Shown here: positions 1-4,239 of the stretch, in pieces | How positions within the stretch are numbered: position 1 is the stretch's first letter | Layout: each line of letters opens with the position of its first letter | Virus record (IMG/VR): IMGVR_UViG_648276671_000009 | Coordinates: 1 to 4,239 of that record | Strand: one strand, 5' to 3' | From: a virus | Taxonomy: Duplodnaviria > Heunggongvirae > Uroviricota > Caudoviricetes | Length of the DNA: 4,239 bases | The notes under the pieces: generated by a model | Database searches by the model: none | What the model was told of the DNA's origin: nothing | The model's input: only the letters and a program-made list of their open reading frames with translations | Program-made: the position numbers and the translations under genes

Positions 1-246
1 CCGAGAGTATACTGGAAGAACATGGACTGGATAGTCGCCCATAAAGGACAACTGGTGGAGCGGTTGATGCGGCTTAAAAAATTTCCCCGAACGCTTTACG
101 ATCGTAAAAAGTTGAATATCCTGTTAAGAGTGGTTACTACGCCACACAGCTTAAACCCGCCGATGAGCGGGTTTTTTATGCCCGAAAAGTGGCACAGGGC
201 GTTAAACGCGCTGGTGGTTGCGAATGCAGGCCTCTCAGTTTGCTGA
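1..246 (+). CDS. hypothetical protein, 3' portion (5' end outside window); possibly a late-gene regulator (Q-like) by position only
   Basis: Frame 1 is open from position 1 with no in-frame stop until TGA 244-246; the track ORF 22-246 is the internal Met. Followed by an AT-rich spacer, a promoter-like element and the tRNA array, as downstream of Q in lambdoid phages. No diagnostic motif recognised, so the product is a guess. Confidence 0.45.
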   Translation, partial: PRVYWKNMDWIVAHKGQLVERLMRLKKFPRTLYDRKKLNILLRVVTTPHSLNPPMSGFFMPEKWHRALNALVVANAGLSVC

Positions 247-376
247 TTTTTTAGACAAGATTTATTTAGCCAGGCGTATCCAAAATAAAAATAATCGTTA
301 TATATGAGAATTTTTTCTTATTTTTAGAAACAAGAAAAATATATGCGGATATTTACGATTGCTGACGTTATCTTTA

Positions 377-405
377 TTGAGCTCGTTCGAGGGGATTCGT
401 ATTAT
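377..405 (+). promoter_or_regulatory. candidate sigma70 promoter for the tRNA array (possible late promoter pR' analogue)
   Basis: TTGAGC (377-382), 17-nt spacer, TATTAT (400-405); predicted start near 412, about 25 nt upstream of the first tRNA. A -10-like AATGAT lies at 421-426 in the initial transcribed region. Confidence 0.35.
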
Positions 406-436
406 ACGCCGCGCCAGCGCAATGATGCGACGGGCA

Positions 437-513
437 GGCCCTTTAGCTCAGTTGGTCAGAGCGAGCGACTCATAATCGCCAGGTCGCTGGTTCAAATCCA
501 GCAAGGGCCACCA
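437..513 (+). tRNA. tRNA-Ile2 type, anticodon CAU (lysidine type; automated tools often call it tRNA-Met)
   Basis: 77 nt with cloverleaf: acceptor GGCCCTT/AAGGGCC, D-arm GCTC..GAGC, anticodon loop CTCATAA (CAT at 471-473), T-loop TTCAAAT, encoded CCA. Close to my recollection of E. coli ileX. Confidence 0.85.
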
Positions 514-514
514 A

Positions 515-587
515 CCGCCACTAGCTCATCGGGAAGAGCGGCAACTAAATGTTGTAGTACGAGGTTCGAGGCCCCGGTGGCGGTCCA
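515..587 (+). tRNA. tRNA-like element with aberrant anticodon arm (pseudo-tRNA or non-canonical tRNA)
   Basis: 73 nt: perfect 7-bp acceptor stem CCGCCAC/GTGGCGG, D-arm GCTC/GAGC, T-arm with GTTCGAGG, encoded CCA. The anticodon arm GCAAC-TAAAT-GTTGT has only a 5-nt loop, so no canonical anticodon can be assigned. Confidence 0.5.
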
Positions 588-589
588 GT

Positions 590-665
<76 letters not shown>

Positions 666-668
666 TAT

Positions 669-743
<75 letters not shown>

Positions 744-1108
744 GCATTTGAAACAAGCCTTATTGTATTGTGGCACTGGCGTATTTTTTTATTACGTGTG
801 AGCAGGTTGTATTGAAAAAGCATTCTGTTCTCTGGCTATGATTTGAGGCCGGGTGTAGCCTCAGTGCTGATTTTTTTACGGCAGCAGAATGGTGCATTAT
901 CGGTGGAGATTTTGTATTTCCTGGCAGGGGCGGTGATGCATCATTCTGGTGTTGTAAAAGCACCGCAGAGGCGTTCCTCAGTGCGAGGGTGGTTTAAAGA
1001 GTCGGTTTAGCGGGAAACCACAGTATCCATACAGAACGGAATACTTCGGGAGGCACCCGACGCCTCGATTCTATTACAATTAAAAATTCATCCTTTGCAT
1101 TGACCAAC

Positions 1109-1132
1109 CGCCTCCACCAGGCGATTTTTTTA
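1109..1132 (+). terminator. putative rho-independent terminator
   Basis: Stem CGCCT (1109-1113) / AGGCG (1119-1123), loop CCACC, then A plus T7 (1125-1131). Confidence 0.45.
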
Positions 1133-1223
1133 TTCTGAATTCAGTTTCTCCAGGCTCGCTACGGCGGGCCTTTTTCATATCCGCGCCACGCCCGGCGCAC
1201 ATCAAAAACCACAGAGCCTTTCA

Positions 1224-1293
1224 GGGGTGAGCTTACGGGATGGTCAGTGTGACTTTCTCTGTGGGCTGGTCACCCCCGGGCGCAGGCTCACCC
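1224..1293 (+). promoter_or_regulatory. repeat-rich leader upstream of the TerB-like gene (candidate operator or RNA structure)
   Basis: Inverted repeat GGGTGAGC (1225-1232) / GCTCACCC (1286-1293); direct repeat GGGATGGTCAG (1237-1247) / GGGCTGGTCAC (1263-1273); short complementary pair GTGAC (1249-1253) / GTCAC (1269-1273). The RBS AGGA 1301-1304 lies just downstream. Confidence 0.3.
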
Positions 1294-1312
1294 ACTAAAA
1301 GGAAAAGTCACG

Positions 1313-1738
1313 ATGTTTGGTATTTTCAAAAAGAAAGCACGTAAAACTTTCACCGAAGTTAAGAAGTTTGAGAACCGCGACGCAGTGGAGGCGACCGTCT
1401 GGGGCGCGTATTCCATTGCATTTGCCGACGGCACCTGCGATGCGAAAGAAATCGCGGTACTGGAGAAAACCATTGCAGCACTTCCTGCTTTTGCGCCGTT
1501 CTCCGGTGAGATTGCACAAATGAGTGCAAATATCCGCGCCCGTTATGAAGCGTCGCCGCGTTCAGCCAATGCCGAAGCCCTCCGTCAGCTGGCTGATGTC
1601 GCCGGTACTGATGACGCGGTGAATGTGCTGTGCCTGTGTCTGGATATTGCAGACCAGGATGGCATTGGTCCGGATGAAGAAGTGCAACTCAAGAAAATTG
1701 CTCAGGCGCTGCAGTTACCACTGGAGCAGTACCTGTGA
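1313..1738 (+). CDS. TerB-like domain protein (tellurite-resistance TerB fold), 141 aa
   Basis: ATG 1313 preceded by AAAAGGAAAAG RBS. Two copies of the TerB-type helix-pair motif: IAFADGTCDAKEIAVLEKTIAAL and LCLDIADQDGIGPDEEVQLKKIAQAL. Typical E. coli codon usage; overlapping ORFs in other frames look like junk. Confidence 0.7.
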   Translation: MFGIFKKKARKTFTEVKKFENRDAVEATVWGAYSIAFADGTCDAKEIAVLEKTIAALPAFAPFSGEIAQMSANIRARYEASPRSANAEALRQLADVAGTDDAVNVLCLCLDIADQDGIGPDEEVQLKKIAQALQLPLEQYL

Positions 1739-1887
1739 AAAGTGCGCGCCTTGTGCTGGCTGCCATCCTGCTGTTTCTGGTAGTGGCGGTGGATTTCACC
1801 GGACGGCTGATGTCGGTGCTGGCAGATGGTGTGCTGGTGGCGGTGGTGCTGGTCGTGATCCGGCCTTTACTGCGCAAGCCTGAATAA
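1735..1887 (+). CDS. small hydrophobic two-helix membrane peptide (50 aa), translationally coupled to the TerB-like gene
   Basis: GTG 1735-1737 overlaps the upstream stop TGA 1736-1738 (GTGA); GGAG at 1722-1725. Translation VKSARLVLAAILLFLVVAVDFTGRLMSVLADGVLVAVVLVVIRPLLRKPE, stop TAA 1885-1887. Below the track's length cut-off. An alternative ATG start at 1810 would give a 25-aa product. Confidence 0.45.
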   Translation: MKSARLVLAAILLFLVVAVDFTGRLMSVLADGVLVAVVLVVIRPLLRKPE

Positions 1888-1896
1888 CACCACACA

Positions 1897-1919
1897 AAAG
1901 GCATCTGCGGGTGCCTTTT
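1897..1919 (+). terminator. putative terminator hairpin (first of a tandem pair)
   Basis: 9-bp stem AAAGGCATC / GGTGCCTTT with tetraloop TGCG, ending in TTTT. Confidence 0.45.
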
Positions 1920-1938
1920 ACGGGGTGTTGTTTTTTAC

Positions 1939-1960
1939 GGGCCGCTGGTGGCCCTTTTTT
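1939..1960 (+). terminator. rho-independent terminator
   Basis: Stem GGGCC (1939-1943) / GGCCC (1950-1954), loop GCTGGT, followed by T6 (1955-1960). Confidence 0.7.
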
Positions 1961-1978
1961 ATTTACAGGAGAAAAAGT

Positions 1979-2373
1979 ATGTCTGAACCCTTGTCCGGCT
2001 CCGGTACGGCTGCGGCGCTCGGTGGGGCGACGGTATTCGGGCTGTTTACCGGGACGGATTTCGGGATTGTGTTTGGCGCGTTCGCCGGGGCGTTATTTGT
2101 GGCAACGATCCACAGGCAATTTCAGCCTGGCGGGTGGCAGCGCATTTTCTGGTGTCGTTCATTATCGGCGTGCTGGGCGCAGAGGTGCTGGCATCCTTGC
2201 TGGTAAAGCATACGGAGTTTGACGGTGCGCCTGTCGACGCATTGTGTGCCGTGCTGGTTTCGGTGGTGTCGGTGAAGATTCTGTCGTTCATCCACCAGCA
2301 GGATATCGCATCACTGGTGTCCGGCCTGTTCTCCCGTCTGCGTGGCGGAGGAGGTGGCGGCAATGTTAAGTAA
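1979..2373 (+). pseudogene. class I-like holin (3 TM) interrupted by a 1-nt frameshift in a G-run near 2129-2136; intact gene would encode about 131 aa
   Basis: ATG 1979 with AGGAG RBS. Frame 2 gives MSEPLSGSGTAAALGGATVFGLFTGTDFGIVFGAFAGALFVATIHRQ and then W/C/R-rich nonsense. Frame 1 from about 2134 gives two clean helices (AAHFLVSFIIGVLGAEVLASLLV, ALCAVLVSVVSVKILSFI) and a tail ending RGGGGGGNVK, stop TAA 2371-2373. The span is 395 nt, which is 396 (132 codons) with one added base; the junction is ggcgggtgg. Confidence 0.6.
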
Positions 2374-2638
2374 CCTTCCCGGATTGCTGAATGTGGCGGT
2401 ATGCACGGTTATCGTGCTGACGCTCTTTTTTTATCGTCGTCGTGACTCCAGACATAAACCGCTGATGTCATGGCTGGCCTGGCTGCTGATGCTGCTGTAT
2501 GCCTTTGCACCCCTCAGCTATCTGTGTGGTCGCCCGTTAGCAACGGGCTGGCTGGAAGTGTTTTTTAATCTGCTGTTCTGCGTGCTGGTGATACGTGCAC
2601 GCGGGAACGTCGCAAGAATCTTTCCATTGTTGAGGTGA
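2363..2638 (+). CDS. holin-like / antiholin-like membrane protein (3 predicted TM), 91 aa
   Basis: ATG 2363 preceded by GGAGGAGG; overlaps the upstream stop by 11 nt. Hydrophobic segments LLNVAVCTVIVLTLFFY, LMSWLAWLLMLLYAFAPLSYL and WLEVFFNLLFCVLVI, with a basic C-terminus. Stop TGA 2636-2638 sits 2 nt before the endolysin start. Confidence 0.7.
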   Translation: MLSNLPGLLNVAVCTVIVLTLFFYRRRDSRHKPLMSWLAWLLMLLYAFAPLSYLCGRPLATGWLEVFFNLLFCVLVIRARGNVARIFPLLR

Positions 2639-2640
2639 AT

Positions 2641-3018
2641 ATGTCGGGTAAATTCAGATTCAGCCGTCGTAGTGAAAAAAATCTGGAGGGCGTCAAACCA
2701 CAGCTGGTTGCTGTCGTTCGCCGTGCGCTGGAACTGTCGGAGGTTGATTTCGGTATTACGGAAGGCCTGCGCACGAAAGAACGCCAGAAGCAGCTGGTCG
2801 CGGAAGGGAAAAGCCAGACCATGAACAGCCGCCACCTGACCGGTGATGCGGTGGATGTTGTTGCCTGGGTTGGCAGTCAGGTGTCATGGGACTGGCCTCT
2901 GTACGAGAAAATCGCGCAGGCATTTAAGCAGGCTGCCGCAGAGCTGGGAACTGCCATCGAATGGGGCGGGGACTGGCGGACGCTTAAAGACGGCCCACAT
3001 TTTCAATTGAAGCGATAG
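2641..3018 (+). CDS. endolysin, peptidase M15 family (L-alanyl-D-glutamate endopeptidase, T5 Lys-like), 125 aa
   Basis: ATG 2641 with GAGGTG RBS. Zn-peptidase motifs SRHLTGDAVDV, WGGDW and DGPHFQL (His/Asp/His ligands). Lies immediately after two holin-like genes. Confidence 0.9.
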   Translation: MSGKFRFSRRSEKNLEGVKPQLVAVVRRALELSEVDFGITEGLRTKERQKQLVAEGKSQTMNSRHLTGDAVDVVAWVGSQVSWDWPLYEKIAQAFKQAAAELGTAIEWGGDWRTLKDGPHFQLKR

Positions 3019-3035
3019 CCTGCAAAACATACAGG

Positions 3036-3058
3036 GCCGCCATGAGCGGCTTTTTTAT
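3036..3058 (+). terminator. rho-independent terminator after the endolysin
   Basis: Stem GCCGC (3036-3040) / GCGGC (3046-3050), loop CATGA, then TTTTTTATT. Confidence 0.65.
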
Positions 3059-3088
3059 TGCTCAAAAAAAGAAAGAACGGAGGTACGT

Positions 3089-3370
3089 ATGTACGCACTG
3101 AAAAAAATCACGGTAACGGAAGATGGGCGTCAGGTTGAAGAAGTGCATGTTCTGGGGAATATGTATCGCCTGGAATTTTACCCGCGCAACACTCACCTTG
3201 CTGCCCGGGTGGAGTATTGCCGGGATGGAAATGTGCCATGCATTTCGGTGGAAAAAACGGATGAAGCCTACATCACCACGCTGGCGGGTGACACGGTGCG
3301 TTGTATCTGTCGCGGTAACAGTAAAGCCCGGGATGAAATAGCAAAATGTCGCAACACTACTGATAAATAA
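3089..3370 (+). CDS. hypothetical Cys-rich soluble protein, 93 aa
   Basis: ATG 3089 with GGAGG at 3079-3083 (5-nt spacing). Five Cys (44, 51, 72, 74, 87) including a C-x-C; no TM segment or signal peptide. Not recognised as Rz. Confidence 0.7.
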   Translation: MYALKKITVTEDGRQVEEVHVLGNMYRLEFYPRNTHLAARVEYCRDGNVPCISVEKTDEAYITTLAGDTVRCICRGNSKARDEIAKCRNTTDK

Positions 3371-3376
3371 AAAGTC

Positions 3377-3409
3377 AAAACCCCGGCTGGGGGAACAGTC
3401 CGGGGTTTT
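3377..3409 (+). terminator. strong, probably bidirectional, terminator
   Basis: Perfect 10-bp stem AAAACCCCGG (3377-3386) / CCGGGGTTTT (3400-3409) with a 13-nt loop; U-rich 3' arm on the + strand and a T-run also follows on the - strand. Confidence 0.7.
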
Positions 3410-3443
3410 GTGTATTCTGACCTTGAGTAAGGCAAGGAAGAAC

Positions 3444-3626
3444 ATGGAGAAGTATAAACGAATTCTGTTGAGGTTGACTATGAAAAACGGCCTTGAATTG
3501 AAAGCGCCTGTAACTGATGACATCAGCAGAGCGGTGGCTTTTGCTATTAAGTGGGTGGCGGTTGGCATCGCCGTGTCTCCGATGCTGTATGGGCTGGCAA
3601 AATTGATTGTTGCTCTGAAATCGTGA
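3444..3626 (+). CDS. small membrane protein with C-terminal TM helix, 60 aa (alternative start ATG 3480 gives 48 aa)
   Basis: ATG 3444 after AAGGAAG; the alternative ATG 3480 follows GAGG with 6-nt spacing. Hydrophobic C-terminus AVAFAIKWVAVGIAVSPMLYGLAKLIVAL. Stop TGA 3624-3626 is 8 nt before the next start. Confidence 0.5.
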   Translation: MEKYKRILLRLTMKNGLELKAPVTDDISRAVAFAIKWVAVGIAVSPMLYGLAKLIVALKS

Positions 3627-3634
3627 GTGGTGAT

Positions 3635-3817
3635 ATGACGCGAAAACACTGGACACACAGAATGCCGCGAACGGCGGCGAAATGGGCACTGGTAGCGATA
3701 CTGCTGCCTTTTTTATTGGTGGGGTGCGTCAGCCTGGATAAGGCGCGTCAGGTTATTCACATAGCAGAGCAGGTCTGCGAAATTGTCGACAGTGTCCGGC
3801 AGTGTATGCAGAACTGA
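3635..3817 (+). CDS. small predicted lipoprotein, 60 aa precursor with about 30-aa mature part (alternative start ATG 3662)
   Basis: Signal peptide with positive n-region, hydrophobic core WALVAILLPFL and lipobox LVGC; mature part CVSLDKARQVIHIAEQVCEIVDSVRQCMQN has 3 Cys and is not proline-rich, so unlike Rz1. Confidence 0.6.
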   Translation: MTRKHWTHRMPRTAAKWALVAILLPFLLVGCVSLDKARQVIHIAEQVCEIVDSVRQCMQN

Positions 3818-3829
3818 ACGCCTGTGAGC

Positions 3830-3889
3830 GCAGAATATTTTGCTGAAAAATGTCGGTGATTACGCTGTCCGGAAAGCATGAAATTCTGC
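3830..3889. repeat. imperfect 15-nt inverted repeat separated by about 30 nt (candidate operator or RNA stem-loop)
   Basis: GCAGAATATTTTGCT (3830-3844) pairs with AGCATGAAATTCTGC (3875-3889) at 13 of 15 positions. Confidence 0.4.
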
Positions 3890-3987
3890 ATTTGTGGTCA
3901 TTCAATAAAATAAATTCTTTCTGCTGCTGTAAATACACAAATGTGAACCGAACCCGGTGCGGCGACGGGCTTCGATATGAGGAGACG

Positions 3988-4239
3988 ATGATGGAAAAAA
4001 CAGAAAACAAACCGATTGTAATTGGTGCTGATGCTGCTCCGTTTAAGTTTGAGTTGTCTCAACTGGTGGAGATGCGCATCAGTGATGAATGGGGTGAGGT
4101 TAAAGCCCGCGCGCAGTATGCGGATGGCGAAAACCAGTACTTACTCCACTACAAAGCTGCTGATGGTCGCGCCACGACGGAGTGGTTTGGTGAGTCAATG
4201 CTGGAAGCAACAGAAGATGATGATCATCCGGGCTGGTCC
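3988..4239 (+). CDS. hypothetical acidic protein, N-terminal 84 aa (3' end outside window)
   Basis: ATGATG 3988-3993 preceded by GAGGAG; frame open to the window end. Begins MMEKTENKPIVIGADAAPFKFELSQLVEMRISDEWGEV. Absent from the track because no stop is reached. Not similar to lambda Nu1 as I recall it. Confidence 0.6.
   Translation, partial: MMEKTENKPIVIGADAAPFKFELSQLVEMRISDEWGEVKARAQYADGENQYLLHYKAADGRATTEWFGESMLEATEDDDHPGWS

Follow-up and report, generated by a model that had tools for sequence, protein, structure and literature searches.

A 4,239-nucleotide stretch of the Caudoviricetes virus record IMGVR_UViG_648276671_000009 (IMG/VR, positions 1 to 4,239), referred to as the window, was analyzed with a focus on a two-gene cassette encoding a 141-amino-acid (aa) TerB-fold protein and a 50-aa membrane peptide. 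The window corresponds to the late region of a lambdoid prophage. At its start, ~170 bases match DNA that related E. coli prophages have annotated as the 3' end of a DNA methyltransferase gene, and these are followed by a tRNA array, the cassette, two holin genes, an M15 endolysin gene and small open reading frames (ORFs) (Table 1). Judged by sequence, the cassette is the tciA-tciB accessory operon of phage P1, here residing in a lambdoid prophage and without tciC. The gene pair as such is already known and is annotated routinely in RefSeq, PHROGs and Pfam; among 5426 complete E. coli genomes, RefSeq lists it in 220, under the names 'TerB family protein' and 'DUF3927 family protein'. The new part of the finding is the structured 5' leader RNA upstream of tciA, for which no catalogued RNA family gave a match.

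TciA adopts the TerB fold as a soluble, stand-alone protein and carries two acidic ADG...E motifs that are conserved. It is 83.7% identical to phage P1 TciA over its full length and matches PHROG 632 end to end (E 7.6e-63). The Pfam TerB model (PF05099) was passed narrowly, with 26.9 bits against a cut-off of 24.4 and over residues 22-57 only. A profile built from 11 TciA proteins, reaching down to 30% identity, matched the solved TerB structure 2JXU with an E value of 6.8e-18, aligning residues 13-138 to residues 19-145. The AlphaFold2 model, built from a 28-sequence alignment, was confident (predicted local distance difference test (pLDDT) 88.5, predicted template modeling score (pTM) 0.83) and displays an all-helical, TerB-like fold of six helices following a disordered basic tail. 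The acidic helix-pair motifs are AFADGTCDAKE at residues 36-46 and IADQDGIGPDEE at residues 111-122, with D39, G40, E46, A113, G117 and E122 being invariant or near-invariant in the alignment of the 11 proteins. At a ratio of nonsynonymous to synonymous substitution rates (dN/dS) of 0.06, tciA is under purifying selection. Its ribosome-binding site, AAAGGAAAAG, ends 8 nt upstream of the ATG. A scan against NCBIfam returned only a weak, sub-threshold DjlA match at residues 21-106.

The 50-aa peptide TciB belongs to Pfam DUF3927 (E 3.8e-15) and PHROG 1470 ('TciB-like') and shares its entire sequence (100% identity) with an E. coli TA280 protein. Residues R5, D20, S27, D31 and P44 are conserved in the family alignment. 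The GTG start codon sits within ...CTGTGA and overlaps the tciA stop codon (GTGA), and a ribosome-binding site, GGAG at 1723-1726, lies 8 nt upstream of it. The reading frame of tciB is under purifying selection (dN/dS 0.41, compared to 0.83-0.93 for the alternative frames), which marks it as a genuine gene. The idea that TciB is a fragment of TerC was rejected, as hhalign of the TciB family profile against phage TerC revealed no similarity. In Pseudomonas phage ZY21, the annotated start of the tciB homologue (L187 1055-1174) lies too far downstream, and extending the ORF upstream yields a full DUF3927 match of 33.8 bits. One Logan contig encodes a 196-aa P1-type TciA-TciB read-through protein (P0055), which most likely reflects a one-base assembly error and not a natural fusion.

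Translation of TciA and TciB is coupled, and phages of very different kinds inherit the two together. In 83 of the 84 loci with close TciA relatives tciB is retained, the sole exception showing a rearrangement within tciB, and the four-base overlap is unchanged in 81 of these 83. A second allele pair has the same layout, with TciA 42% and TciB 49% identical. A tblastn search of the phage collection with a TciB peptide gave no match, presumably owing to masking by the low-complexity filter, and co-occurrence was therefore assessed at each locus directly. Reading distant loci one by one, we found a DUF3927 peptide after TciA in P1, P7, Erwinia and Salmonella jumbo phages, Pseudomonas phage ZY21, Pantoea phage LIET2, the N4-like Salmonella phages SP058 and SP076, and prophages of Yersinia, Nissabacter, Enterobacter and Plesiomonas. 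TciB is missing from Vibrio phage MS02, in which a TerC/Alx gene lies directly upstream of TciA (L190 378-1397), and from Pseudomonas phages Zuri and AF, in which a different conserved single-helix protein is encoded downstream. A membrane partner adjoins the TciA-type TerB in every lineage checked. The Zuri/AF protein (L191 1943-2146; L205 ~1130-1330), unannotated in AF, carries the motif YG(W/Y)QTERET.YA.FVGCMV. The cassette decays in some lysogens: tciA is frameshifted or truncated in some prophages, and in one tciB is fused to unrelated sequence by a rearrangement (L023, L099, L112, L051).

Part of this had been proposed in an earlier, sequence-only reading of the same DNA. The two ORFs that it joined through a GTGA overlap are both present, with plausible Shine-Dalgarno (SD) sequences before each, and the two TerB-type helix-pair motifs that it pointed out fall on invariant or near-invariant alignment columns. 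Its assignment to TerB is borne out by the Pfam and 2JXU matches and the all-helical model, the two-helix membrane peptide that it saw as a coupled partner by the DUF3927 match, the overlap and the dN/dS, and the co-occurrence of the pair extends from the close loci to distant phages. It had not recognized a named system; the pair is tciA-tciB of phage P1, PHROG 632 and 1470, and Pfam TerB plus DUF3927.

In phage P1, a DUF3927 TciB likewise lies immediately downstream of TciA with overlapping stop and start codons, and tRNA genes and a DNA methyltransferase gene are located nearby as in the window. P1 and P7 however possess a 35-aa TciC, whereas a third peptide is not present in the window, where no ORF but only terminators lie between 1887 and 1979. 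P1 also lacks the structured leader found here, and its pair resides in the C1-repressed ban operon, in contrast to the Q-dependent late region of the window. The P1 tciA-tciB-tciC annotation is that of Lobocka et al. 2004. With TerB of terZABCDE(F) operons (R478, K. pneumoniae; 2JXU), TciA shares the fold and the two acidic helix-pair motifs. Unlike operon TerB, it stands alone, with tRNAs, holins and endolysin as neighbors in place of TerZ/A/C/D/E, and its partner is a 50-aa hairpin without TerC similarity instead of the multi-pass TerC. DjlA resembles the pair in having a TerB-like domain tethered to the inner membrane, and one TciA homologue is mislabelled DjlA in its source database; in DjlA, however, anchor and TerB domain form one chain followed by a J domain, whereas the TciAB anchor is a separate peptide and a J domain is absent.

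Transfer RNA genes adjoin tciAB in unrelated phages (window 437-743, L003, L186, L187, L189, L202-L204): in P1/P7 (Asn and Thr upstream, Ile downstream), in jumbo phages (Trp and Cys upstream) and in Pseudomonas ZY21 (Arg downstream), as well as in the array of the window. A DNA methyltransferase gene is often found just upstream of tciAB, i.e., in P1, the window, PPyecE, Nissabacter and Plesiomonas.

Every tciAB context found is a lytic-cycle operon. In lambdoid late operons, holin and endolysin are reached only by Q-antiterminated transcription, and stx2, located in the same slot, is likewise Q-dependent. The tciAB slot precedes three different holin families in E. coli, Nissabacter and Plesiomonas prophages. 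In Yersinia and Enterobacter prophages the pair is found in the early-left operon, beside kil or between ydfABC-like genes and ydfE-int, in P1 within the C1-repressed ban operon, and N4-like and jumbo phages that are strictly lytic carry it as well. The window is enriched for terminator-like sites, with 15 compared to 4.7 +/- 2.3 in shuffled sequences. A consensus scan detected no sigma-70-like promoter in 1100-1320, even when at least 8 of 12 matches sufficed. Of the features expected for a moron, the cassette has its own terminator and, by this sigma-70 scan, not its own promoter. Since a promoter-like site was not found, two terminators lie upstream, and holin and endolysin depend on Q, tciAB is most simply part of the late transcript.

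The accessory-cargo slot between Q/tRNAs and lysis genes, as the sequence-only reading had placed the cassette, is real, given the tRNA array on one side and the holins and M15 endolysin on the other, and so are the tandem downstream terminators. Its upstream terminator at 1109-1132 exists as well, with a longer stem (CCGCC...GGCGG) in relatives; in the window it is weak (5 bp, -7.1 kcal/mol), and the stronger site at 1152-1176 had been overlooked. At the latter, the stem sequence varies across loci while hairpin and U-run are retained. The hairpin at 1896-1936 is possibly bidirectional, as the scan called the minus strand. What was not supported was the proposed expression from the lysogen independently of late transcription: the promoter scan, the two upstream terminators, the occurrence in lytic phages and the repressor- or Q-controlled operons all speak against it. 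P1 tci transcripts were reported to change during P1vir infection (bioRxiv 10.64898/2025.12.28.696737), and TciA peptides were detected in P1 preparations (PMC9024508).

The leader is more conserved than the gene itself, with a median identity of 97.9% compared to 90.6% for tciA. The conserved block begins at 1183 regardless of the upstream sequence, and a tciA allele always comes next. Jumbo phages of Erwinia and Salmonella, which are lytic and encode a TciA of ~40% identity, have a recognizable version. A coding region was rejected, as the C run is length-variable and no ORF spans the leader on either strand; a sigma-54 or sigma-E promoter was rejected on visual inspection alone, which showed the key dinucleotides and the -35 element to be absent. 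A search of Rfam 15 yielded no match at E <= 1, either for the leader of the window or for four paralogues.

A structure of four elements (P0, H1, the G-strand helix and the P0-loop-to-strand pseudoknot) was tested on 21 sequences. Scored on the same sequences from which it was derived, 95.6% of cells were paired, as opposed to 38-57% with the partners slid. Eight pairs were changed on both sides, compared to 3.6 +/- 1.3 in shuffles, of which 2 in 500 reached eight; few independent lineages stand behind this covariation. The P0 stem occurs in four different sequences among the leaders, and G-U variants are confined to the plus strand, which points to RNA and not DNA.

Using the covariance model, which scores the leader at 168 bits, together with nhmmer, we detected divergent leader paralogues (35-59 bits) in the same phages, upstream of a KilA-N gene and two further ORFs. 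The loop and its partner covary across these paralogues, from CGCCC/GGGCG to GGCUC/GAGCC, UCUCAC/GUGAGA and CGCAC/GUGCG, and H1 is present in six complementary forms, whereas CCUUUC and the SD AAAGG are unchanged in all of them. For the G strand, the tciA leaders alone fit either 1270-1276 or 1286-1293 as partner; the paralogues favor 1286-1293, and a separate inner strand pairing with 1270-1276. The genes that follow paralogue leaders are late-region genes, i.e., KilA-N, an ORF starting MNMITVPFHG... and an ORF starting MKEMISVD..., and each paralogue-carrying phage contains both the tciA leader and the paralogue. The distribution is narrow: a strict two-motif scan of 100,044 species genomes gave six matches, two genuine and four by chance, as expected.

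On this sequence evidence, the leader is a candidate translational or processing operator for accessory genes. The preQ1-II and SAM-II riboswitches and the lambda cIII thermometer are functional analogues in that they combine, like the tciA leader, a compact 5' untranslated region, a pseudoknot and a conserved anti-SD near the SD; the tciA leader differs in having no sequence or model match to Rfam and in belonging to a family that precedes unrelated phage genes. We tentatively propose, with somewhat less than even confidence in the proposal as a whole, that the leader belongs to a previously undescribed family of cis-regulatory RNAs with a pseudoknot in enterobacterial phages, that members of this family accompany accessory genes (tciA, KilA-N/Bro-like and others) within late or early transcripts, and that they gate translation or processing, possibly on a cellular signal such as a metal ion. 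If regulatory, the leader RNA would account for phage control over accessory genes that lie within antiterminated transcripts.

Table 1 Coordinates of the cassette, its leader and flanking features in the window, and of leader paralogues in related loci.
Feature	Position	Strand	Description
tciA	1313..1738	+	141 aa, ATG; cytoplasmic TerB-fold protein, disordered basic N-terminal tail (residues 1-20), six helices
tciB	1735..1887	+	50 aa, GTG start; two-helix membrane hairpin, Pfam DUF3927
tciA 5' leader RNA	1183..1312	+	130 nt, conserved, structured
Leader P0 hairpin	1183-1187/1194-1198	+	Loop ACGCCC
Leader helix H1	1209-1216/1257-1264	+	
Leader CCUUU	1217-1221	+	Invariant; complementary to SD AAAGG 1298-1302
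Leader G strand	1224-1232	+	Can pair with 1270-1276 or 1286-1293
Leader pseudoknot	1189-1193 with 1278-1282	+	P0 loop CGCCC with GGGCG
Leader paralogues	L001 6948-7080; L255 8797-8934; L265 1295-1431; L049 6100-6233; L264 2500-2633		
Weak terminator-like hairpin	1109..1132	+	5 bp (1109-1123) and U7 run, -7.1 kcal/mol
Stronger terminator-like hairpin	1152..1176	+	8 bp (1152-1171) and UUUUU, -15.5 kcal/mol; directly before leader
First downstream terminator-like hairpin	1896..1936	+	10-bp stem 1896-1905/1910-1919, U-rich tail; -19.7 kcal/mol for 1888-1935
Second downstream terminator-like hairpin	1939..1960	+	Hairpin 1939-1954 and U6 run, -10.8 kcal/mol
tRNA array	437..743	+	CAT-anticodon tRNA, degenerate 515-587, tRNA-Thr(TGT), tRNA-Gly(TCC)
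First holin gene (Phage_holin_8)	1979..2373	+	Two Pfam half-matches; directly downstream of cassette; frameshifted

We suggest that TciA-TciB is a minimal phage version of the TerB-plus-membrane-protein unit known as TerB-TerC from ter operons. TciB, with both ends predicted to be cytoplasmic by the positive-inside rule, would serve TciA as its dedicated partner in the membrane and keep it at the inner membrane's cytoplasmic face. PMC12054061 and two preprints cite a TerC-TerB complex, amphitropic TerB and a role in 'membrane surveillance'. Having no promoter of its own, prophage tciAB would be transcribed only together with the lysis genes, by Q-modified RNA polymerase reading through the terminators, and the pseudoknotted leader, in which the invariant CCUUU can pair with the SD, might set tciAB translation or mRNA fate. 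The module would then act in the infected (induced) cell, guarding or monitoring membrane or ion status until programmed lysis. Alternatively, it might exclude secondary invaders of the induced cell, such as other phages or pore-forming colicins, as the ter cluster does. Such a membrane role in infected cells would parallel the phenotypes reported for ter clusters, namely phage inhibition and resistance to pore-forming colicins.

Taken as a whole, from a P1-type tciAB with a membrane-held TerB through late-only expression and leader control to a role in infected cells, we regard this reading as evenly balanced between right and wrong. Several observations weigh against it. To our knowledge, TerB has never been shown to act without other ter proteins. 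The co-fold of TciA with TciB, obtained via the read-through protein P0055, gave a low-confidence model (pLDDT 63.6, pTM 0.39). The result of the consensus scan remains compatible with a promoter within the leader or just ahead of it that is weak, depends on an activator or uses an alternative sigma factor, and as the first holin gene is frameshifted, this prophage may not complete the lytic cycle at all. The names tciA and tciB in the P1 genome annotation (GenBank AF234172) were given 'by homology' to TerB only; in the literature on TciA/TciB we found no experiment assigning a function, other papers repeating the homology only, and CRISPRi in P1 classified tciA, tciB and tciC as non-essential for plaque formation (PMC10695390).

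As the survey of loci shows, phages carry a two-gene minimal TerB unit with a dedicated small membrane partner, a unit that can be dissected far more easily than a ter operon or a defence system of three genes. What TerB does is a question dating from the 1990s that now bears on several anti-phage systems; if the proposal of a new leader RNA family is true, the coupled TciA-TciB pair would be a minimal and tractable model for this unsolved function.

A membrane-associated TerB pair could also serve the uninduced lysogen, as a lysogenic-conversion module for superinfection exclusion or abortive infection with TciA as a sensor of membrane perturbation and the TciB hairpin as a small depolarising effector. 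TerB domains are found with membrane or pore proteins in the validated defence systems Bunzi (BnzAB), Shango (SngABC) and Dionysus (DinABC); the sequence-only reading was right in giving Shango a TerB subunit. Like TciAB, these systems combine a TerB domain with membrane-embedded components, and a 'membrane surveillance' role has been proposed for them. The ter cluster confers phage inhibition as well as protection from pore-forming colicins, the cassette is flanked by terminators in a moron-like manner, and the defence speculation is already in print, with prophage TerB listed as a putative defence gene (PMC7371120). TciAB however lacks the helicase/ATPase, the lipid-binding TerB fusion and the four-helix pore toxin of the named systems, and no helicase, ATPase or pore-toxin gene is present in the window. 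A search of PADLOC-DB v2, including Shango and Bunzi, gave zero matches at E <= 1 for both proteins and four neighbors. In contrast to the named systems, the pair is phage-encoded and extends to N4-like and jumbo phages that are strictly lytic and form no lysogen in need of protection, and its temperate contexts are all repressed operons. Together with the lack of a promoter-like site in 1100-1320 and with the frameshifted tciA of some prophages, which indicates that lysogens do not strictly maintain the gene, this renders a function in lysogen defence rather unlikely.

The presence of TciA in many virulent phages, jumbo phages included, would fit a counter-defence function, in which an anchored phage TerB acts as decoy or antagonist of host TerB membrane surveillance (ter operon, Shango, Bunzi, Dionysus) and allows replication in such hosts. 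Dionysus, which contains TerB, targets jumbo phages, tciAB is expressed in lytic operons, and the tci genes are dispensable in a laboratory host lacking such systems. The argument is nevertheless purely inferential: no sequence feature ties TciA to the TerB of defence systems over that of operons, and the named systems are usually missing from the E. coli hosts of these prophages. We consider counter-defence unlikely.

In E. coli, Nissabacter and Plesiomonas prophages, the pair immediately precedes the holin gene, with three holin families represented, which might instead suggest that TciAB modulates holin triggering like an antiholin, e.g., by delaying membrane depolarisation, and TciB is indeed a two-helix membrane peptide of holin size. 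P1, the Yersinia and Enterobacter prophages and the lytic phages however keep the pair far from lysis genes, in early regions, and Pfam and PHROG searches gave no sequence similarity to holin or antiholin families, leaving a role in lysis timing improbable. That TciAB confers literal tellurite or metal resistance on the host, as the database names and the TerB homology might imply, is very hard to credit, since the naming is by homology only, terZ, A, C, D and E are all missing, and the cited literature names TerC-TerD as the minimal tellurite-resistance unit.

Among the neighbors of the cassette, the first holin gene, when compared to two intact homologues, lacks 1 nt after ~2109; this deletion divides the gene into two ORFs and reflects either a lysis-defective prophage or a sequencing error. 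An additional in-frame 3-nt insertion is located near its 3' end. Downstream, ORF 3089-3370 matches PHROG 33497, of unknown function. Two 60-aa ORFs follow the endolysin gene (3444-3626 and 3635-3817), one with a C-terminal hydrophobic helix and one with a lipobox-like LLVGC; both match PHROG families of unknown function and might form an unusual spanin-like pair.

In the tRNA array, ARAGORN called four tRNAs and the Rfam tRNA model three, the latter not detecting 515-587. ARAGORN assigned this segment to tRNA-Phe with the impossible anticodon AAA, and it is probably a degenerate tRNA remnant. At 941-1135 the window gives a sub-threshold match to the small RNA family STnc100 (18.5 bits, gathering threshold 47); as related prophages hold full-scoring copies between the tRNAs and tciA (L255 3780-3992, L264 7677-7870), this segment may be a decayed STnc100 copy. 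The best match to the cassette in the phage database, PP818812.1 (L001; 94% DNA identity), was deposited as an Actinobacillus pleuropneumoniae phage, a host label that looks doubtful because the rest of its late region corresponds to an E. coli lambdoid phage.

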